A stretch of 34,495 nt of DNA from a virus. Where the stretch lies: the UHGV virus genome UHGV-0366749; one strand, given 5' to 3'. This document shows positions 239-12,366 of the stretch, one piece after another (within the stretch, counting starts at the first letter, position 1; each line of letters begins with the position of its first letter). Under the pieces are notes generated by a model. That model was not told the origin of the DNA. It saw only the letters and a program-made list of their open reading frames with translations, and did no database searches. Both the position numbers and the translations under genes were made by a program.

Positions 239-1291
239 TTACGGGGTAATGCCAACCGCTGCCGCCACTTTGTCGCCACTTGGCAGCGTTGCCAGAGGAT
301 TGAAACGGAGCGCCGTTTCCAGATGATCCGGTGCCAGATGTGCGTAACGCATAGTCATTTTTATATCGTGGTGTCCGAGAATTTTTTGTAAGGCCAGAAT
401 GTTTCCACCCGACATCATGAAGTGCGCCGCAAACGTATGGCGCAGAACGTGTGTGAGTTGACCGCGAGGGAGCACGATAGACGTTTTTTCCATCACGGAT
501 AAAAATTGAAAATAGCAGTCTGTGAAGAAATTGAACCCATCAAGCGCCATGATCTCTTCGTAAAGCTCTTTACTGATAGGGATGCTTCTGTTTTTCTTCC
601 CCTTCGTTCTGACAAAGGTAATTCGGTATTTGGTCACCTGTGAGCGGGTAAGATTTACGGCTTCACGCCAGCGTGCGCCTGTGCTTAAGCATATCTTAAC
701 TACCAGTGCCAGAATTGGGTCCTGACGTTTGCAATCAGCCAGCAATTCAACAATCTGCTCATGGGTAAGCCATGCCATCTCTTTTTCTGCGATGGTGAAT
801 TTTCGCATGTTCTCCAGTGGGTTCGGATACGACCATTCGCCCAGACGGGATAGTTCGCTAAAAACACTACTTAGATAGCTTTGCTCCAGGTTAATGGTGA
901 CCGGGCTTGCTCCTTTCTTCCATTTCTCGCTGAAGTAGATCTCGCCTGTCAGGCGTTTATCTCGATAGTGGGCAAACATTTTAGAGGTGAGATCGGTTGC
1001 AAGAGGATTGCCCAGAGCGTCAACCATCAACAGCAATTTGTCATAGACATGCTGCCCAGCTGTCAGAGATTTACCATGTAGTTTGAACCATAGCTCAACC
1101 ACGTCTTTCAGTGTTCGACGATCCACTGATTCACCCAGCCAGGGCTTTGCTTCGGTTTCTTCCATCGTGTGGCGCTCAAAAGCCAGTGCTTCGCCTTTGG
1201 TGACGAATTGTTTACGCACACGACGCCCACTTCGTCCGGCGGGGTAACATTCGCAAAGCCATTTCCCAGTGGTGAGTTTTCGTACTGCCAT
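239..1291 (-). CDS. int: Tyrosine integrase (P2 Int family)
   Basis: C-terminal HxxR…Y tyrosine-recombinase region (…LRHTFAAHFMMSGGNILALQKILGHHDIKMTMRYAH…). Start chosen at the internal ATG (MAVRKLTTGKW…) preceded by GGAGGG; the longer ORF to 1447 is probably an N-terminal over-extension. Confidence 0.9.
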   Translation of the reverse strand: MAVRKLTTGKWLCECYPAGRSGRRVRKQFVTKGEALAFERHTMEETEAKPWLGESVDRRTLKDVVELWFKLHGKSLTAGQHVYDKLLLMVDALGNPLATDLTSKMFAHYRDKRLTGEIYFSEKWKKGASPVTINLEQSYLSSVFSELSRLGEWSYPNPLENMRKFTIAEKEMAWLTHEQIVELLADCKRQDPILALVVKICLSTGARWREAVNLTRSQVTKYRITFVRTKGKKNRSIPISKELYEEIMALDGFNFFTDCYFQFLSVMEKTSIVLPRGQLTHVLRHTFAAHFMMSGGNILALQKILGHHDIKMTMRYAHLAPDHLETALRFNPLATLPSGDKVAAAVGITP

Positions 1292-1479: not shown

Positions 1480-1671
1480 TTATCGTGAGTTTTTAGTACA
1501 GATTTTTTTGGATTTACTAATAGTTCCATCATTGCAAACGAATTTGCCATCTGAGGTACAGTGAGAAACACCTCCCTTTTTCCCTGAGCAGGGATAATTT
1601 CTAGCATAGGTAGTTAGTGGGTTTAATAACAAAGAACATGACAAAACCACAAAAAATACCTTACCAAGCAT
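1480..1671 (-). CDS. Small secreted cysteine-rich protein (63 aa), possible lysogenic-conversion moron
   Basis: Strong RBS (GGAGG, 5-nt spacer) before the ATG; N-terminal hydrophobic signal-like segment and four Cys in the predicted mature part; AT-rich; lies between cI and int on the lysogenic-strand transcript. Confidence 0.55.
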
Positions 1672-1686: not shown

Positions 1687-2256
1687 CTATTTAACATACT
1701 TGACTGTTAAACTTATAATTTTACCAATTATTTCAATGTCTTCTATCTTGCATTCGAAGGCTCTGTTTCCACCCTCGACGAAGATTCTTCCACCGGGTAA
1801 ACGAGTAATGTCACGGATCGTTATTTCGCCATCAATACTTATTACCCATTTACCATCACGTATATCATCAAATTCTTTATCACAAATAAATTCAGAATTG
1901 TTATCTGTGATGACAAAAGGTTTTTTAAACGTAGAGGGTAGAAATCCCTTATCAAAAATATAAAAACCGTCTTTCTGCAATGCTCCATCAGACAATAAAT
2001 ATTTTTCTACTTCTATAGTATTTGTATTTGCTGATGCTTGCTTTGAACCATGCCCTGTTGTTAGCCAATTAAGCGAGGTGCCCGTTTCAAGGGCGCACTG
2101 GATTACCCAATCTGCTGGAAAAATATCACGCATATAGCGCGTTGCCATGGTGCTCTTAGAAACACCTAAATGATCACATAGAGCCTGACGGGTACCGAAC
2201 CCATATGCTTCAACTAAACGTTCTATGGCTTTCTTACCGCCGCTATTGAAATCCAC
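1687..2256 (-). CDS. cI: 186-type CI immunity repressor
   Basis: Recalled similarity to phage 186 CI (CALETG…WLTTG; LPGG…V.GG…FEC.I.DI). Start set to the GTG preceded by TGGAGGA rather than the upstream ATG at 2343, giving about 190 aa. Confidence 0.75.
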   Translation of the reverse strand: MDFNSGGKKAIERLVEAYGFGTRQALCDHLGVSKSTMATRYMRDIFPADWVIQCALETGTSLNWLTTGHGSKQASANTNTIEVEKYLLSDGALQKDGFYIFDKGFLPSTFKKPFVITDNNSEFICDKEFDDIRDGKWVISIDGEITIRDITRLPGGRIFVEGGNRAFECKIEDIEIIGKIISLTVKYVK

Positions 2257-2401
2257 AAGTCCTCCAAAGAAATCCAAAATTCGTTGACAGATTCCAAAAG
2301 CGATCTTAAAGTTGAACCAGAAGTGTTCTTTTGGAGCCTTCACTACTAATCACGACAAACAACGGCTCGCCACAAGCCATATCTAGAAGGAATGTTGCCT
2401 T

Positions 2402-2605: not shown

Positions 2606-2669
2606 TAGACGTCTATTTTCGCAATAAGACGCTGAGTTCGATTTTGCGATAAGTTCGGAGTTGAAAACC

Positions 2670-3179
2670 ATGTTTGATTACCAAGTTTCCAAACATCCAC
2701 ATTTTGATGAAGCCTGTCGTGCATTCGCACTGCGCCACAATCTGGTGCAACTGGCAGAACGTGCGGGCATGAATGTGCAGATTCTGCGGAACAAGCTGAA
2801 CCCAGCTCAACCTCATTTATTAACCGCACCAGAAATCTGGCTGCTTACCGATCTGACTGAAGATTCAACGTTGGTAGATGGTTTTCTGGCACAGATTCAT
2901 TGTCTGCCATGTGTACCGATTAATGAGGTAGCAAAAGAGAAACTGCCGCATTACGTCATGAGCGCAACTGCAGAGATCGGGCGTGTTGCAGCAGGTGCGG
3001 TATCTGGTGATGTAAAAACTAGTGCCGGTCGTCGTGATGCTATCAGCAGCATTAACTCTGTAACACGACTGATGGCGCTGGCTGCTGTTTCATTGCAGGC
3101 CCGTTTACAGGCTAATCCTGCGATGGCGAGTGCAGTTGATACCGTGACTGGCCTCGGTGCTTCATTCGGTTTGCTGTGA
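2670..3179 (+). CDS. cII: CII-like lysogeny establishment protein (186 type)
   Basis: 169 aa from the ATG at 2670 (the listed ORF begins at an upstream TTG), the same length as 186 CII, with a CGGAG RBS and the expected position after apl. Confidence 0.65.
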
Positions 3180-3186
3180 GGTGCTT

Positions 3187-3483
3187 ATGCTGACGAAAGA
3201 ACCATCATTTGCATCGCTGCTGGTAAAACAAAGCCCGGCAATGCACTACGGTCACGGCTGGATCACGGGTGAGGATGGAAAACGCTGGCATCCATGTCAT
3301 TCACAAGATGAATTGCTGTCTGAATTGACCACGAGGAAACGGAGAAAGTCCAAATGTATGCGGCAGAAAGTGAAGTGGTTTATCAGTTTCGTTACAGAGG
3401 GGAGAGTTATTCAGTACCTGAAGATGATTTGCTCTGTTGCTATCCGTCATTGTCGGGCGATGGCAGTTACTTTTTCACGTTAA
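3187..3483 (+). CDS. Hypothetical early protein
   Basis: ATG at 3187 preceded by GAGGTG; overlaps the next ORF in another frame, so one of the two may be mis-called. Confidence 0.3.
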   Translation: MLTKEPSFASLLVKQSPAMHYGHGWITGEDGKRWHPCHSQDELLSELTTRKRRKSKCMRQKVKWFISFVTEGRVIQYLKMICSVAIRHCRAMAVTFSR

Positions 3484-4243: not shown

Positions 4244-4470
4244 TGGCTGATGCAATGGATCTCGTACAGCAGCGCGTTGAAGAAGAACGCCAGCGCCATA
4301 TCCGTGCAGCCCGTGCCAAATCACCGGGCGTGTCACGCGTACTTTGCATTGAATGTGAAGCGCCAATTCCGCCAGCACGACGCCGCGCCATTCCGGGAGT
4401 GCAGCTTTGCATTACCTGTCAGGAAATCGCAGAACTGAAAGGCAAACATTACAACGGAGGTGCTGTATGA
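4243..4470 (+). CDS. TraR/DksA-family C4 zinc-finger protein
   Basis: CIECEAPIPPARRRAIPGVQLCITCQ, i.e. CxxC-N17-CxxC, typical of phage TraR/DksA-like proteins; RBS GCAGGAG. Confidence 0.7.
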   Translation: MADAMDLVQQRVEEERQRHIRAARAKSPGVSRVLCIECEAPIPPARRRAIPGVQLCITCQEIAELKGKHYNGGAV

Positions 4471-5324
4471 GCACCATCCTGAAATGGGCGGGAAATAAAA
4501 CCGCCATTATGCCAGAACTGAAAAAATACCTTCCTGCTGGCCCGCGACTGGTTGAACCTTTCGCGGGTTCCTGTGCTGTGATGATGGAAACGGATTATCC
4601 CAGCTATCTGGTTGCGGATATTAATCCTGATTTAATCAACCTCTATAAAAAGGTTGCCGCTGATTGTGAATCGTTTATATCTCGCGCCAGAGTTTTATTT
4701 GAGATCGCAAACAGGGAGGTGGCTTATTACAACATAAGGCAGGAGTTTAACTGCTCAACTGAAATTACTGATTTCATGAAAGCGGTATATTTCCTGTATC
4801 TTAATCGTCACGGTTACCGTGGTTTATGTCGCTATAACAAGAGCGGGCATTTCAACATCCCCTACGGTAATTATAAAAATCCGTATTTCCCTGAAAAAGA
4901 ACTTCGCACATTTGCAGAAAAAGCCCAGCGAGCAACGTTTATCTGCGCCAGCTTTGATGAAACGCTGGCGATGTTGAAGGCGGGAGATGTGGTGTATTGC
5001 GATCCGCCGTATGACGGTACGTTTTCCGGCTATCACACTGATGGTTTCACTGAAGATGACCAGTATCACCTGGCATCCGTTCTTGAACATCGGTCATCAG
5101 AAGGACATCCAGTCATTGTTTCTAACAGTGACACATCCCTGATCCGTTCGCTGTATCGCAATTTTACTCACCACTATATCAAGGTAAAACGCAGCATCGG
5201 TGTGGCAGCTGGCGAGGGTAAATCAGCAACAGAAATCATTGCTGTTTCCGGGCCGCGCTGCTGGATGGGATTTGATTATTCGCGTGGCGTGGATAGTTCT
5301 GCCGTGTACGGAGTACGTGCATGA
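4467..5324 (+). CDS. dam: DNA adenine (N6) methyltransferase, Dam family
   Basis: N-terminal ILKWAGNK…PFAGSCAV (AdoMet-binding) and the DPPY catalytic motif; start overlaps the upstream stop (ATGA) and the stop overlaps the gene A start. Confidence 0.85.
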
Positions 5325-7735
5325 GTCATGCCGATATGAACAACTGCTGCGGCTTTAACGAGGCTGCCGCAGCATTCTCATGGAACAGCCCGAAAAAGGC
5401 CATTAACCCTTATCTGGACCCGGCGGAAGTTGCGCCGGTTTCTACGCTTTCAAACCTGATCACTCTGTACGCTGCCGATAACGAGCAGGAACAGTTGCGC
5501 CGCGAGGCACTGAGTGATCAGGTCTGGGAGCGTTATTTCTTTAATGAATCACGTGATCCTGTCCAGCGCGAAATGGAGCAGGATAAGCTCATTAGCCAGG
5601 CAAAGCTGGCGCATGAGCAGCAGCGTTTTAATTCAGACATGGTCATTCTGGCGGACGTCAACGCCCAGCCTTCCCATATCAGCAAGCCGCTGATGCAACG
5701 TATTGAATACTTCAGCAGCCTGGGCAGGCCAAAGGCTTATTCCCGCTATTTACGTGAGACGATTAAGCCATGTCTGGAACGACTGGAGCATGTACGCGAC
5801 AGTCAGCTATCTGCATCTTTTCGCTTTATGGCAAGCCATGAAGGGCTGGACGGCCTGCTGATCCTGCCTGAAATGAGTCAGGATCAGGTGAAACGCCTGT
5901 CCACCCTGGTAGCTGCGCATATGAGTATGTGCCTTGATGCAGCTTGTGGTGATTTGTATGCCACCGATGACGTTAAGCCAGAAGAAATCCGCAAGACATG
6001 GGAAAAGGTGGCAGCGGAAACCCTGCGTCTGGATGTCATCCCACCTGCGTTTGAGCAACTCCGTCGGAAAAGAAACCGCCGTAAACCCGTGCCCTATGAA
6101 CTCATTCCGGGTTCGCTGGCGCGTATGTTGTGCGCCGACTGGTGGTACCGGAAATTATGGAAGATGCGTTGCGAATGGCGGGAAGAGCAGTTGCGCGCTG
6201 TTTGCCTGGTCAGCAAAAAAGCATCTCCTTATGTCAGCTATGAAGCCGTGATGCATAAACGTGAGCAGCGCCGTAAGTCGCTGGAGTTTTTCCGTTCTCA
6301 TGAACTGGTGAACGAAGACGGCGACACGCTGGACATGGAGGATGTGGTAAACGCCAGCAGCAGCAACCCTGCGCATCGCCGCAATGAGATGATGGCCTGT
6401 GTTAAAGGTCTGGAGCTTATCGCGGAAATGCGCGGTGACTGCGCCGTTTTCTACACTATCACCTGTCCGTCGCGTTTCCATTCCACGCTAAATAACGGCA
6501 GACCAAACCCGACCTGGACAAACGCGACGGTAAGACAAAGCAGCGATTATCTGGTCGGCATGTTTGCTGCATTTCGTAAGGCGATGCACAAAGCCGGGTT
6601 GCGCTGGTATGGCGTGCGGGTGGCTGAGCCGCATCATGATGGCACAGTTCACTGGCACCTGTTGTGTTTCATGCGCAAAAAAGACCGCCGTGCCATCACT
6701 GCATTACTGCGTAAGTTTGCCATCCGTGAAGACCGCGAGGAGCTGGGCAATAACACTGGGCCGCGCTTTAAGTCTGAGTTGATTAACCCGCGCAAAGGAA
6801 CGCCGACAAGCTACATCGCGAAATATATCAGTAAGAACATTGACGGTCGTGGTCTGGCTGGCGAGATCAGCAAGGAAACGGGTAAATCTCTGCGTGATAA
6901 CGCTGAATACGTGAATGCCTGGGCGTCTCTGCATCGTGTTCAGCAATTCCGCTTCTTTGGTATTCCGGGGCGTCAGGCTTACCGTGAACTTCGCTTGCTG
7001 GCTGGTCAGGCGGCAAGGCAACAGGGTGACAAAAAAGCAGGTGTGCCGGTACTGGATAACCCGCGTCTTGATGCCATTCTGGCTGCTGCTGATGCTGGTT
7101 GTTTTGCCACCTACATCATGAAGCAGGGCGGCGTACTGGTTCCCCGTAAATATCACCTCATCAGAACCGCTTATGAAATCAACGAAGAGCCGACCGCCTA
7201 TGGCGATCACGGCATTCGTATTTATGGCATCTGGTCACCCATTGCAGAGGGCAAGATCTGCACTCATGCAGTGAAGTGGAAAATGGTTCGTAAAGCCGTT
7301 GACGTTCAGGAGGCGGCAGCCGACCAGGGCGCTTGCGCCCCTTGGACTCGTGGCAATAACTGTCCCCTTGCTGAAAATTTGTACCAACAAGGGAAAGACA
7401 AATCAGCTGATGGGGATACCAGAACGGATATCACCCGCATGGATGACAAGGAATTGCACGATTACCTGCACAGTATGAACAAAAAAGAGCGCCGGGAACT
7501 GGCTGCAAGGTTACGCCTGGTGAAACCGAAACGGCGTAGAGACTACAAACAGCGAATTACAGATCATCAGCGACAGCAGCTCGTCTATGAACTGAAGTCC
7601 AGAGGATTTGATGGCAGCGAGAAAGAGGTCGATTTACTCCTTCGCGGTGGCAGTATTCCGTCAGGAGCAGGCCTGCGTATCTTCTATCGGAACCAGCGTT
7701 TGCAGGAAGATGATAAGTGGCGGGATCTGTATTAA
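5321..7735 (+). CDS. A: Rolling-circle replication initiation endonuclease (P2 gpA family)
   Basis: 804 aa with an HUH-type motif ([10 protein letters not shown]), the size and position of P2/186 gene A. Confidence 0.9.
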
Positions 7736-7804: not shown

Positions 7805-7833
7805 TTTACATCAGTGAGATTATTATATACTGT
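7805..7833 (+). promoter_or_regulatory. Sigma70-like promoter (-35 TTTACA, 17-bp spacer, -10 TACTGT) overlapping a LexA-box-like sequence
   Basis: Read directly from the sequence upstream of the 7888 ORF. Confidence 0.4.
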
Positions 7834-7847
7834 AAATATAACCAGTG
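7828..7847. promoter_or_regulatory. Candidate LexA (SOS) operator
   Basis: TACTGTAAATATAACCAGTG against consensus TACTGTATATATATACAGTA: CTGT-N8-CCAG with one mismatch in the right half; overlaps the putative -10. Confidence 0.45.
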
Positions 7848-7887
7848 GTTATGTATACAGTATTGCTTTGGTGTCATAGGAGGAAAG

Positions 7888-8076
7888 ATGCAGGACTATT
7901 TTTTGGAGTCTTTGAAGCTCCAGCGCATTGATTTTTTTCTTAAGCTTGTAGCGGCTAGTGAGTGTAGTGATGAAGAGAAGGGGCTGGCCCTGCAGTGGGT
8001 TTCTGAACTGACAGATGAACTCATGGCAAAAATCAGAACCCATGAATACAACCGCTCAATGGATGTCATCAGCTGA
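7888..8076 (+). CDS. Small SOS-operon protein (62 aa), possible Tum-like N-terminal module
   Basis: Strong RBS TAGGAGGA before the ATG; immediately downstream of the LexA-box-like promoter and upstream of the DinI-like gene. Confidence 0.5.
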   Translation: MQDYFLESLKLQRIDFFLKLVAASECSDEEKGLALQWVSELTDELMAKIRTHEYNRSMDVIS

Positions 8077-8086
8077 GGTGACTTTT

Positions 8087-8320
8087 ATGCGCATTGAAAT
8101 AATGATCGATAAAGAGCAGAAGATTAGCCAGTCTACACTGGACGCCCTTGAATCCGAGCTTTACCGCAATCTGCGCCCCCTGTATCCCAAAACGGTAATT
8201 CGTATCCGCAAAGGTAGCTCTAACGGTGTGGAACTGACCGGACTGCAACTGGACGAAGAAAGAAAACAAGTGATGAAAATTATGCAGAAGGTCTGGGAGG
8301 ACGACAGCTGGTTACACTAG
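8087..8320 (+). CDS. dinI: DinI-family protein
   Basis: 77 aa (MRIEIMIDKEQKIS…IMQKVWEDDSWL) resembling E. coli DinI from memory; GAGGTG RBS. Confidence 0.8.
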   Translation: MRIEIMIDKEQKISQSTLDALESELYRNLRPLYPKTVIRIRKGSSNGVELTGLQLDEERKQVMKIMQKVWEDDSWLH

Positions 8321-8326
8321 CGAACG

Positions 8327-8361
8327 TTGCGGACGATAAAACTGGTTTTTATCGTCCGCAA
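8327..8361 (+). terminator. Hairpin downstream of the dinI-like gene
   Basis: Perfect 15-bp inverted repeat ttgcggacgataaaa / ttttatcgtccgcaa with a 5-nt loop. Confidence 0.45.
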
Positions 8362-8526
8362 GGTTGAACAACGAGCCGCGTGAGGCGTTAGAAACGGGTA
8401 GTGAAAAGTGATTTAAGAATGCCTTGTTCCCCTGAAACTTTGGCCTATGCAACAACATTCGACAGCTTTCTTGATTATCATAAGTAACTTGAAGTTTAGG
8501 GACGATTCTGATGGTATACGTGAAAA

Positions 8527-9726
8527 ATGTATCGTGTGTTGCTTTGGCAAAAAGGAGTTTTAGTGGACAACGGCTCAATCACCTTCTTTGATATTACTGC
8601 TTGTGGGTTTTATCGTTTAAAGAATAAACCCGAAGAGCTTGATTATAAATTCGGCGATCTTATGGGGGTTTTGGACGATTTAGAAGGGTGGCTCAAGGAT
8701 AAAAATTTTGAGCAGACTCTCCCATGGAATAAAGAAGAACAACCTCTGCGAACACGAGTTTACAGTCGAGGCCTTGTGAGGGACAGCCAGACTAAAGATG
8801 CAGTAATTGTTTTATACCGTGAAGTGGGGAACGGTAACGGAATACATGGTATTAAGGTCGGTTCTAAAGTAAGTGGTGATAGTAAAGGAACCATTAGGGC
8901 GGGAAGAGAACATGGTGAGGATAAAATAATTTGGGGTGAACCCTGCTATTACTGGATTATTCCTGAGTTGAATAAAATAGCATCAATCAGATTCCCCCAT
9001 TCTTTCGCTGATACTTATCTCTTCGCACAATACTTCATTCAGCATGTAAATAATAATAGTAAGTTAGGTAAAAGAACGAAATCTAAGCGTACATTTGAAT
9101 CAGCTAAGACCCCTGGTCGTTGTGTGGATGTCTACAATACTAAGTTTCAATATAAAGATGGCAAAAATGAGATAAACTGTATCTTCAAGTTTGTATTGGA
9201 AGAAACAAAACTTAAAGCCGCTGAGGAAAACTTTGAAAGGTTAAGGCATAAAATTACACACACATTGATAAAGGATACAACGGTAATAAACCAAAATGAC
9301 ACAAGGCAACCATTGTTGAAGCTAACAAGTGTAGCTTTAGCATCTCTGGTGGGTGAAGAAAAGCGTAATAAGCTTATTGGGGCACCTCCTGTTTTGGAGC
9401 AGCCTCGTAAAATTGAAGTTAAAATTGACGGTGCACCATCATCGGATGAGCTTCGAAATCTCTTCTCAATGAGAGGTGAAGAGTCTGAATGGGATGTGGG
9501 TTTTTTACTGGCTGATCGTGCTAATCCGGTTTGGCTCAGTAGCTATGTAGCCAGGACTAAACTTCCTCTTCAAGATTCGGATGGGTTTGAGCATTATTCA
9601 GCGCGTTTTTTACTGGATGAAATAAACAAAATTCGTGATGATTTGATTAGTGAAGTAAAATATGCTGAGGAAGCATCCATTAAAGAATCTGAAGCTGCAT
9701 CCACAAAAAAGATAGCGGAAGGTTGA
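8527..9726 (+). CDS. Uncharacterised 399-aa soluble protein, gene 1 of a coupled two-gene accessory cassette
   Basis: Long ORF in a sharply AT-rich island at the P2 tin/old position. An in-frame GTG at 8563 with AAGGAG 5 nt upstream is the more likely start. No Walker A, CD-NTase, reverse-transcriptase or other motif recognised. Confidence 0.7.
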   Translation: MYRVLLWQKGVLVDNGSITFFDITACGFYRLKNKPEELDYKFGDLMGVLDDLEGWLKDKNFEQTLPWNKEEQPLRTRVYSRGLVRDSQTKDAVIVLYREVGNGNGIHGIKVGSKVSGDSKGTIRAGREHGEDKIIWGEPCYYWIIPELNKIASIRFPHSFADTYLFAQYFIQHVNNNSKLGKRTKSKRTFESAKTPGRCVDVYNTKFQYKDGKNEINCIFKFVLEETKLKAAEENFERLRHKITHTLIKDTTVINQNDTRQPLLKLTSVALASLVGEEKRNKLIGAPPVLEQPRKIEVKIDGAPSSDELRNLFSMRGEESEWDVGFLLADRANPVWLSSYVARTKLPLQDSDGFEHYSARFLLDEINKIRDDLISEVKYAEEASIKESEAASTKKIAEG

Positions 9727-9727
9727 T

Positions 9728-10264
9728 ATGACAGAAACGGAAGGTTTGATAATAACAGTTGCAAAACAGCAGGCGATTAATTTTGTTGCTGTTGTTTTGT
9801 GCTGCGTTATAAGCTATTTTTCGTTCAAAAGTTTTTCCTATAATGATGCAAAAGATATTTTAGGTGCGCTTATAAATATTTCAGCATCTATATTCACTAT
9901 TGTCGGTTTATGGGTCGGTTTTTTATATCCGAATGCAATGAATAGTATTGTTAAGGATGATGTAAGTTATATAAAAAATGAGCATGACTCACCAAGAATA
10001 GAGAAATTAGTTTATACAATAATCACATCTGCTTGTGTTATGGCTGGGATTCTAATTTTCTTTTTGGTTAAGGCAGTGTTTTATGCATTACCTGTTTATC
10101 AAGCTAATAAAGACTTGTTTAAATACATTGGTATTTTCTTCATTTACTTTATTAGCTGGATGCAATTAAAATGCGTTATGAGCCTGATTTTGAGTAATTT
10201 ACATTTTGTTAATCACTTACATGGACGTTTAGCAAAAGCGAAATTAGAACACTATGATGAATAA
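9728..10264 (+). CDS. Small membrane protein (178 aa, about four predicted TM helices), gene 2 of the cassette
   Basis: Start overlaps the gene 1 stop (TGATATG); four hydrophobic stretches (e.g. AINFVAVVLCCVISYFSF, LVYTIITSACVMAGILIFFLV); AT-rich. Confidence 0.75.
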   Translation: MTETEGLIITVAKQQAINFVAVVLCCVISYFSFKSFSYNDAKDILGALINISASIFTIVGLWVGFLYPNAMNSIVKDDVSYIKNEHDSPRIEKLVYTIITSACVMAGILIFFLVKAVFYALPVYQANKDLFKYIGIFFIYFISWMQLKCVMSLILSNLHFVNHLHGRLAKAKLEHYDE

Positions 10265-10478
10265 AGTGTTCGTATTGGCAGGAGTTACTGTGGATGTTTA
10301 ACCTCAACAAGAGTAAGCCTCCTTTAACATGGGAATCACCGTTCTAACAAGCTTTGCATGTCTATGCTGCATGAATCCGCATGATCGTTTTAGGATCGTT
10401 TTTGCTGAGGCCCGCCAGAACTGGCGGGCTTTTGCTTATGTCATACACCTGCATGAAAACCACTACATAAAGCGGGCA

Positions 10479-10497
10479 GGCGTGGCGGGGATACGAG
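10479..10497. other. cos: Putative cos cohesive-end site
   Basis: GGCGTGGCGGGGATACGAG; the first 13 nt match the recalled 186 cohesive end GGCGTGGCGGGGAAAGCAT (P2: GGCGAGGCGGGGAAAGCAC); in an intergenic gap where the phage right and left arms should meet. Confidence 0.45.
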
Positions 10498-10542
10498 CGC
10501 GCGCTAACTCATAAATCCTAGATTATTAGTGGATTTATCTCA

Positions 10543-12366
10543 TTGAAATGTGCACTATTCCCAGCATTGAGTTGTACCAGATGTCTTTATGGAGGGACTG
10601 TGGCTTTTGTAACTGATATTCGGCTTGAAGATAATGCTATTGCTGCACCTGCGACAGCACAGGTTATGGCTCAGAGGCTAGGATCTGTATTACGTAAGAG
10701 ATATGAAGAATTCATCCATAAAAGAGAGTGTGCACCAGGCCAAGCAGACTATGATGTAAAAATGGCTAGCAGGGCTTTAGCTGCATTCACTATGTATCAG
10801 TTAGGATGTGTGGATGATAAGTATGCAGGGGAGTCTGTATGTGATAGTAGTGAAGATGGTGGTATAGATGGAATAGCAATCAACCATAACGAAAAAATCG
10901 TTGTTGTTGTTCAATCAAAATTTCACCAATCGGGAAACGGCACTTGGACAAGAGCCGATTTTATGTGTTTTAAGGATGCTTGTGAGAAGCTACAAAGTGA
11001 AAGATACGAATTATTTGATTCCATATTGCAAAATAAAAGCGGGGAAATAAGTGCGGCTTTAAGTAGTTTTGAATACAAGTTCATCTTTGCGATGGCGCAT
11101 ACAGGTAAAAAAGGTGCTGCAGAGGAAATATTAAATGATATGCGGGAATGGCAATATCAATTAAACGCTGCAGCTTTTACACCTGAGGATGAGCCTAAAG
11201 AGAACTGGGGATTTCAGGTTCATTTAATATCCTCTGAAGATATGATGCATTGGTTACAGAATGGCTCTCGAAATCAAATTGATCTTAACAGGGTTGAAAT
11301 TGAGCGTTTTGGATTTTTGAATGAACCATATCAAGCTTTTTACGGGGCTATTAGTGGTGATCAAGTTGCAGAATGGTGGGAAGAGCATGGTGCTCGATTA
11401 TTTACAAAAAACATAAGGAATATGCTTGGTAAAACAGAAGTGAATGAGGAAATAAAAAAGACAGCTATAGATAATCCTGATATGTTTTGGTTTTATAATA
11501 ATGGGATTACTGTACTGGTTAAGGAGGTTGTTCCTCATAGACGAAACGCAGCTCCTAATATAGAGAGAGGGATTTTTGATTTTCGTGATGTAAGTGTAAT
11601 TAATGGTGCACAAACAGTCAGTAGTATTGGCGCATGTAAAGATGCGCTTGGTGAAAACATATATAGACTCAAAGTGCCAGCTAGATTCATTGTTATAGAT
11701 GATGATACTGATAATTTAACTGCAAATGCGATTACAAAAGCTAACAATTTCCAAAATAGAGTATTGGGAAGGGATTTTGCGTCGCAGCAGGCAGATCAAC
11801 ATAGATTGGCAAGGGAGTTAGTGCTTGAAGGATATCAATATCAGTTACTAAGAACAGATGAAGATCATTCACAGACAAATACGAAAGTCATTGACTTGGA
11901 TGAGGCGCTCAATGCACTCGCATGTTTAAGTAAAAATAATACGGTTGTATCGACACTAAAATCAAATCGCGGTAGGTTTTTTGAAAATTTTGAAGGCTCT
12001 CTATATAAAACTATTTTCAATCCAAGATTAAGTGGTTTAAAACTTATCAATACTGTTCTACATTTTAGAGTTATAGATAAGTTGATCGGTAAAACATTAC
12101 TATCAGTAGATAAAACTACCCATAGTCGCAAGCATTTAATTATTACGCATGGTAATAGATACTATGCGTCTGTGCTATTGAGCAACGTTTCTGGGATACA
12201 TAATAGCTCAGAAATTCTTGTTCCAGATGAAAAAAATCTTTCAGAAGAATTAAGTGCATTAATTCAACGTGCTGAAGAGTACATTGAAGATAATTACCCG
12301 AATGCCTATCCGGCAAGATTTTTTGCAAATCCAACGAAAATACAAGAGTTATACGATAATGTTTAA
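10543..12366 (+). CDS. AIPR-like abortive-infection protein with an N-terminal Mrr-like PD-(D/E)xK nuclease motif
   Basis: SEDGGIDGIAINHNEKIVVVVQSKF fits the Mrr catalytic core (DGGIDG…QxK); an NGITVL…INGAQT segment lies mid-protein; AT-rich. Start is uncertain (TTG 10543, GTG 10600 after GGAGGG, or ATG 10666). Confidence 0.7.
   Translation: MKCALFPALSCTRCLYGGTVAFVTDIRLEDNAIAAPATAQVMAQRLGSVLRKRYEEFIHKRECAPGQADYDVKMASRALAAFTMYQLGCVDDKYAGESVCDSSEDGGIDGIAINHNEKIVVVVQSKFHQSGNGTWTRADFMCFKDACEKLQSERYELFDSILQNKSGEISAALSSFEYKFIFAMAHTGKKGAAEEILNDMREWQYQLNAAAFTPEDEPKENWGFQVHLISSEDMMHWLQNGSRNQIDLNRVEIERFGFLNEPYQAFYGAISGDQVAEWWEEHGARLFTKNIRNMLGKTEVNEEIKKTAIDNPDMFWFYNNGITVLVKEVVPHRRNAAPNIERGIFDFRDVSVINGAQTVSSIGACKDALGENIYRLKVPARFIVIDDDTDNLTANAITKANNFQNRVLGRDFASQQADQHRLARELVLEGYQYQLLRTDEDHSQTNTKVIDLDEALNALACLSKNNTVVSTLKSNRGRFFENFEGSLYKTIFNPRLSGLKLINTVLHFRVIDKLIGKTLLSVDKTTHSRKHLIITHGNRYYASVLLSNVSGIHNSSEILVPDEKNLSEELSALIQRAEEYIEDNYPNAYPARFFANPTKIQELYDNV

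Follow-up and report, generated by a model that had tools for sequence, protein, structure and literature searches.

In phage 186, the CI repressor is inactivated by the Tum protein and not by cleavage (PMC3121763). Lemire et al. 2011 described Fels-2 as analogous to 186 in its use of an antirepressor mechanism and noted that tum is split in two in Fels-2 and PSP3 (PMC3121763); the same paper attributes antirepressor activity to the upstream PSP3 gene. In the PSP3 GenBank record (NC_005340), the two genes are annotated as tumA ('similar to 5' end 186 tum; UV induction of prophage') and tumB ('similar to dinI and 3' end of 186 tum'). Here we describe a locus of this type at positions 7,805–8,320 of the virus genome UHGV-0366749, a stretch of 34,495 nucleotides (nt) that is referred to below as the window. 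The locus consists of a predicted LexA-controlled promoter, an open reading frame (ORF) of 62 amino acids (aa), which we call ORF62 or tumA, and a 77-aa DinI-like gene, tumB. Sequence comparisons indicate that it is very probably the operon for SOS induction in a P2-family prophage that resembles Fels-2 and has a genetic switch of the 186 type.

The anatomy of the module, its homologies, its conservation and the naturalness of its split come directly from the sequence analysis. The window as a whole represents a prophage of the P2 family (Peduoviridae) whose switch is of the 186 type, and the module stands directly after gene A, as it does in 186. A 700-base-pair (bp) region is 97% identical at the DNA level to Salmonella prophage Fels-2. 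The region was also matched in ~1,125 of 5,426 complete E. coli genomes (about one in five), and the module would be the induction unit of a very common prophage type. The initial annotation had proposed a Tum-type module split into two ORFs in different frames. This proposal is upheld by the presence in the same phage of a cognate 186-type CI with CII and Fil nearby, by the position and promoter geometry of the module, by profile homology to residues 2–44 of Tum, by the PSP3 record and by the literature. Its description of 186 tum, as a LexA-controlled gene for an antirepressor with a DinI-like C-terminal part, agrees with the 186 record and with the published description (PMC3121763). Given that the split Tum-type module is already known for Fels-2 and PSP3, the idea was right and is already in the literature, and our main finding adds nothing new to biology; a literature search on TumA/TumB returned unrelated papers only. 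The additions made here are modest and testable, namely a profile link to Tum, a colicin-type double operator, an invariant TumA accompanied by diverse CI repressors, and a candidate LexA-controlled int promoter.

The promoter is predicted from a −35 hexamer, TTTACA (7805–7810, plus strand), which is invariant in Fels-2-type loci, and a −10 hexamer, TACTGT (7828–7833, plus strand), located 17 bp downstream. The −10 hexamer forms the first 6 nt of a predicted 20-nt LexA box, TACTGTAAATATAACCAGTG (box 1, 7828–7847), which contains CTGT-N8-CCAG at 7830–7845. The 186 p95 promoter as annotated (TTCACA, 18 bp, TACTGT) has the identical −10 hexamer and the same overlap between −10 element and LexA box. 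At the sequence level, a LexA operator therefore overlaps a sigma-70 promoter that immediately precedes tumA, and each element of the promoter and near-consensus box reported in the initial annotation was found where it had been placed. A consensus promoter scan detected no promoter at the locus because TACTGT matches TATAAT at only three of six positions, making it a weak −10 element. LexA sites were scored with a 20-nt weight matrix built from 27 known LexA operators of E. coli, a set in which small errors are possible, which limits the weight of the scores. Box 1 ranks first among all 20-mers of the 34.5-kilobase (kb) window with 22.2 bits, compared to a median of 20.3 bits for real operators, and this score was reached in only 0.5% of 200 Markov-simulated windows. 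Its heterology index (~5.0) falls within the range of real operators. The bare pattern CTGT-N9-CAG was uninformative, occurring 6 times in the window versus 4.0 times expected.

The box is also conserved in position. Among 265 related loci fetched from IMG/VR, which comprise three TumA families, nearly all have a box of at least 21 bits situated 15–41 nt upstream of the homologous gene. The sequence of the box varies between lineages, with CTG and CAG kept. Most relatives carry ...AAACAGTG in place of the box 1 sequence of the window, and the CCAG variant present here is the form seen in colicin operators. A single Fels-2-type locus, L005 (IMGVR_UViG_2634166506_000002), departs from this arrangement: unrelated sequence rich in GC stands in place of box 1 and the −35 region upstream of tumA, leaving just the second half of the operator. 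Recombination may have produced this locus and altered its SOS control.

A second predicted LexA box that overlaps the first, CAGTGGTTATGTATACAGTA (box 2, 7843–7862), was missed by the initial annotation. It has 5 nt in common with box 1 and is the third-best 20-mer of the window (15.3 bits). With two 20-nt boxes at a 15-nt offset, the locus has a double operator of the colicin type at the sequence level. The 39 nt that include both boxes (7826–7864) are ~90–92% identical to the operator found immediately upstream of colicin R (cra) and cloacin-like genes, and the likeness to these operators of small Col plasmids includes the non-canonical GTG half-site of box 2. The genes that the colicin operators control are unrelated to those of the window, and the −35 element is 9 nt closer in the window, with the result that box 1 overlaps the −10 element. 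Across Fels-2-type loci, TACAGT of box 2 is kept while neighboring bases vary. A single LexA box is present in 186, in PSP3 and in distant ORF62-family loci, and a MAFFT alignment pairs the box of 186 and PSP3 with box 2 rather than with box 1. Colicin operators, with their two overlapping SOS boxes, bind two LexA dimers cooperatively and are very tightly repressed (PMC2994835). A tight, late-firing operator would make sense where promoter leakage would kill the lysogen.

The tumA-like gene (7888–8076, plus strand; ATG at 7888, TGA at 8074–8076) is predicted to encode an antirepressor of 186-type CI. As the initial annotation recognized, it has a strong ribosome-binding site, AGGAGG (7878–7883, plus strand), which is conserved in relatives. 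Its product is 98% identical to Fels-2 STM2728 ('hypothetical'), matches phrog_698 ('unknown function') and has no Pfam or NCBIfam match; the listed records of phages and E. coli likewise call Fels-2-type TumA a 'hypothetical protein'. Similarity to the N-terminal region of Tum, on which the initial annotation had staked its proposal, was found by profile comparison. Using hhalign, the ORF62 family (28 diverse members) matched the 186 Tum N-terminal family with a probability of 96.2% and an E value of 2.4e-9. The two are aligned in register, residues 2–44 with residues 2–44, and Glu7, Arg13, Leu20, Ala22, Cys26, Ala34, Leu35, and Glu40 are identical. In a further profile-profile comparison, the 186 Tum N-terminal family matched the PSP3 TumA family (85%, E 6e-6). 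Together with the direct comparison of the ORF62 and PSP3 TumA families considered below, these results indicate that the three families form one superfamily bridged by 186 Tum. By profile comparison, the locus thus encodes a homologue of the N-terminal antirepressor domain of Tum, and the link is of practical use for annotation, since it justifies naming Fels-2-type TumA a putative antirepressor. The AlphaFold model of TumA is a two-helix hairpin (helices 2–23 and 28–61; predicted local distance difference test score, pLDDT, 88). A Foldseek search with this model against PDB and BFVD returned generic helical hairpins only, all with E > 0.1.

The second gene, tumB (8087–8320, plus strand; ATG at 8087), lies in the +1 frame with respect to tumA. 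Ten nt separate the tumA stop codon from the tumB ATG, and the GAGG ribosome-binding site of tumB (8075–8078, plus strand) overlaps that stop codon, a spacing that would fit translational coupling. The initial annotation of a 77-aa DinI-like gene holds, given that the product belongs to the DinI family (PF06183, E 6.6e-23, 81.3 bits versus a cut-off of 24.2). It matches positions 71–148 of the 151 positions of phrog_189. The product shares 100% identity with the DinI-family protein of Fels-2 (STM2726.1), 78% with PSP3 TumB and 41% with the C-terminal half of 186 Tum, and it is not the host DinI equivalog (NF007893, 42.7 bits versus a cut-off of 111). From family membership alone, TumB may be expected to bind RecA filaments. 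Immediately 3' of the tumB stop codon is a strong hairpin (8323–8365, plus strand; −26.3 kcal/mol, z-score −6.1, 15-bp core stem at 8327–8361), a candidate partial terminator or RNA-stabilizing element. Since neither strand has a U tract, a terminator role is uncertain; in 186, the partial terminator t95a occupies the corresponding position.

TumA presumably targets the 186-type CI repressor of the window (1687–2343, minus strand; PF07022, E 3.3e-31; PF16452, E 4.7e-29), the true start of which probably lies inside this ORF. We compared it with the CI proteins of the 80 IMG/VR loci kept for ORF62 (L005–L084), all of which encode a TumA 100% identical to that of the window. A syntenic CI gene was found in 70 of the 80, on the opposite strand 4.8–7.2 kb upstream. 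Relative to the CI of the window, the N-terminal DNA-binding domains are 61–100% identical and the C-terminal domains 25–100% identical. In total, the identical ORF62 co-occurs with at least 8 clusters of CI N-terminal domains (75% level) and ~13 clusters of C-terminal domains (55% level). Across this set, an invariant antirepressor is thus found with a highly mosaic immunity region. At a broader scale, TumA families correspond approximately one-to-one to clusters of CI N-terminal domains at the 55% level, where the 186-type (64 loci), PSP3-type (71 loci), and Fels-2-type (71 loci) each occupy a cluster of their own. No such mapping was seen onto CI C-terminal-domain clusters. These comparisons hint that TumA might target the CI N-terminal domain or might have broad specificity.

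By analogy with 186, PSP3 and Fels-2, from which we infer that LexA binds the operator, that damage induces the operon, that TumA binds CI and what TumB does, the module could work as follows. In an undamaged lysogen, host LexA would occupy the double overlapping operator (7828–7862), covering the −10 element as well as the start site of the sigma-70 promoter and keeping the operon off. Upon DNA damage, active RecA would stimulate LexA self-cleavage and the promoter would fire, giving one transcript from which two small proteins, TumA and TumB, would be made. TumA, a putative two-helix equivalent of the N-terminal region of 186 Tum, would bind CI non-covalently and titrate it off its operators, as Tum does in 186 (PMC3121763). 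Loss of CI from its operators would then release the lytic promoter and induce the prophage. TumB would bind RecA filaments and tune the SOS signal, an accessory function that is probably dispensable for induction. Non-polar deletion of dinI did not significantly affect the induction of Gifsy prophages (PMC3121763).

The initial annotation offered both a natural two-protein arrangement and a frameshifted tum; the former stood and the latter did not. Two ORFs that lie in different frames so close together, at a place where 186 has a single 146-aa Tum, could in principle be the remnants, with little or no function, of a fused ancestor that was broken by mutation and is decaying. The distribution of forms makes this extremely improbable. 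When the fetched IMG/VR loci were sorted by TumA family, the ORF62 family contained no fused forms, 84 split forms and 22 loci without an adjacent DinI gene; 81 of the 84 split loci share the same +1 offset. The corresponding numbers were 0, 51 (split in frame), and 30 for the PSP3-type and 79, 1, and 1 for the 186-type. TumA homologues therefore occur without any adjacent DinI gene in 52 loci. Five of the DinI-less ORF62-family loci were inspected, and no plausible forward-strand gene follows TumA in any of them, the next genes apparently being on the reverse strand. A representative search at 50% identity also found no fused ORF62-family form, its 66 clusters being nearly all stand-alone proteins of 50–100 aa. 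Decay is likewise at odds with the pattern of substitution in tumA: the ratio of nonsynonymous to synonymous substitution rates (dN/dS) is 0.13–0.18 in groups not selected on protein identity, and 14 of 16 variable nt sites are third codon positions in loci that were selected for identical TumA. Each ORF is preceded by a ribosome-binding site of its own, the listed records among the matching complete E. coli genomes annotate two genes, and the PSP3 record gives the split as tumA and tumB. Taken together, sequence comparisons establish that the split is natural and is not a frameshift. The window has a ~60-aa gene followed by a 77-aa DinI-like gene, after gene A and behind one predicted LexA-controlled promoter. 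Given the stop codon at 8074–8076, the new start at 8087 and the +1 frame between the ORFs, the module belongs to the split PSP3/Fels-2 form and not to the fused 186 form. In 186, a free DinI-like product is also made from an internal GTG start. This, together with the existence of fused, split and DinI-less forms, indicates that antirepressor and DinI are separable units.

Whether TumA is an antirepressor of CI deserves separate consideration, because several points weigh against that assignment. BLASTP of ORF62 against 186 Tum and PSP3 TumA revealed no similarity, and there is no pairwise similarity to any characterized antirepressor. Compared directly by hhalign, the ORF62 and PSP3 TumA families match weakly (8% probability, E 0.004), so the tie to the split gene of reported activity runs through 186 Tum. 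That activity is itself second-hand, a personal communication of G. E. Christie cited by Lemire et al. via Bunny et al. 2002 (PMC3121763). Identical TumA accompanies divergent CI, which would not be expected of a highly specific antirepressor-repressor pair. In Mantel tests, TumA-CI co-variation was mostly explained by linkage to the neighboring gpA, and the partial correlations were weak (0.17, 0.19, and 0.50 for the N-terminal domain; 0.05, 0.28, and 0.10 for the C-terminal domain). One could therefore suppose that ORF62 is SOS-induced but has another role in the damage response, as a partner of TumB/RecA or by acting on a host target, and that the prophage is induced by another route. The missing Pfam and NCBIfam matches, the uninformative PHROG, the generic helical hairpin with no informative structural match and the occurrence of an identical ORF62 beside many CI domain clusters would all be compatible with such a role. 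We nevertheless consider it unlikely. The profile match to Tum residues 2–44 is significant and in register, and ORF62 shares its position, promoter logic and partner gene with tum and tumA. TumA families follow the CI N-terminal-domain clusters almost one-to-one at the 55% level, the 186-type CI lacks a supported autocleavage domain, and Fels-2 has been described as a user of a 186-like antirepressor (PMC3121763). A different objection would be that CI is inactivated by RecA-stimulated self-cleavage, as in lambda, leaving the tum operon dispensable. A faint Peptidase_S24 match in CI (residues 153–210, E 0.009) might be read in this way; at 16.1 bits it is below the Pfam threshold of 23.3 and lies under the much stronger match to PF16452, the 186 CI C-terminal domain. 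Given also that 186 CI is inactivated by Tum instead (PMC3121763) and that a predicted LexA-controlled tum module is conserved across the group, we regard self-cleavage as very improbable and reject it. Antirepression of CI by TumA thus stays the preferred reading.

Outside the module, the second-best LexA site of the window in the weight-matrix scan is CACTGGTTATACATACAGTG at 1321–1340 (21.7 bits). It fills the spacer of a near-consensus minus-strand promoter, TTGACA-17-GAAAAT (1321–1353), which is followed by GGAGG and the start of int. The integrase gene (239–1291, minus strand) likely has its true start at about 1291 (MAVRKLTT...). A LexA box upstream of int was found in all 42 ORF62-family loci in which int is at least 393 nt from cI, with cargo between them, and was absent in all 17 ORF62-family loci in which the two genes abut. 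Fels-2 has no such box because its cI and int are 3 nt apart. The box was also absent in the three scored loci of the P0172 type (in two of these, cI and int are 831 nt apart) and in all 79 186-type and PSP3-type loci scored. This distribution suggests that a sub-lineage may have an SOS-controlled integrase promoter. A literature search on LexA-controlled P2-like integrases found nothing. Between cI and int of the window is a 63-aa ORF (1480–1671, minus strand) with a signal-peptide-like N-terminus and several cysteines. The surrounding DNA (~1370–1720) had no match in the phage collection, and the ORF probably represents a small cargo gene by which int became uncoupled from cI.

The remaining genes of the early region are an Apl-like ORF (2402–2605), CII (2661–3179), Fil (3157–3483), a Dam-like methylase (4407–5324), and gpA (5321–7735), the product of which is 89% identical to the Fels-2 'P2 gpA-like protein'. 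Cargo occupies 8527–12366, between tumB and the late genes. It comprises a PDC-M18A/B candidate defense pair of 399 and 178 aa (8527–10264, plus strand) and an AIPR/AbiU-like abortive-infection protein of 607 aa (10543–12366, plus strand).

A more speculative possibility, which we put forward tentatively and which has less than an even chance of being correct, is that the SOS circuit of the Fels-2 lineage is broader than that of 186, combining a colicin-type tum operator, a TumA that acts on many heteroimmune CI repressors and a LexA-repressed int promoter. If so, the double operator, probably exchanged with Col plasmids, would set a high, late threshold for induction. The near-invariant TumA would most likely act via the better-conserved N-terminal DNA-binding domain of CI, and co-resident Fels-2-type prophages of different immunity would induce one another. 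Finally, int would have gained its own LexA-repressed promoter in those sub-lineages where a cargo gene separated it from cI. The three features could refine views of induction thresholds and of cross-induction in polylysogens.

Several known systems are close to the module. The dinI-antirepressor operons of Gifsy-1/2/3 (GfoA, GftA) also pair a LexA-controlled small antirepressor with a DinI homologue and leave the repressor uncleaved (PMC3121763); in these operons the order is reversed, with dinI first, and the prophages are lambdoid, with a different repressor family. Phage 186 has a CI/CII/Apl switch of the same type, a Tum with a DinI-like C-terminal part, and a LexA-repressed promoter (p95-tum) with a −10 TACTGT that starts the box, like the one predicted here. 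In contrast to the window, 186 carries both parts in one 146-aa polypeptide, as do 79 of 81 sampled 186-type loci, its box is single, and the DinI parts are only 41% identical. In PSP3, too, gene A is followed directly by a LexA box and promoter, a ~60-aa antirepressor gene and, as a gene of its own, a 77-aa DinI-like ORF. The TumA of PSP3 belongs to a different sequence family, its single consensus LexA box is 20 nt from the start codon, and its two genes share a reading frame, with a stop codon and one more codon between them, whereas those of the window are offset by +1. In Fels-2 of Salmonella LT2, STM2728 and STM2726.1, downstream of gpA, have the same gene order, promoter and double LexA box as tumA and tumB. 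The differences are that box 1 of Fels-2 has ACAG instead of the CCAG of the window, that the leader is 1 nt shorter in the window, that the downstream cargo is unlike, and that a small gene and a candidate LexA-repressed promoter stand between cI and int in the window.

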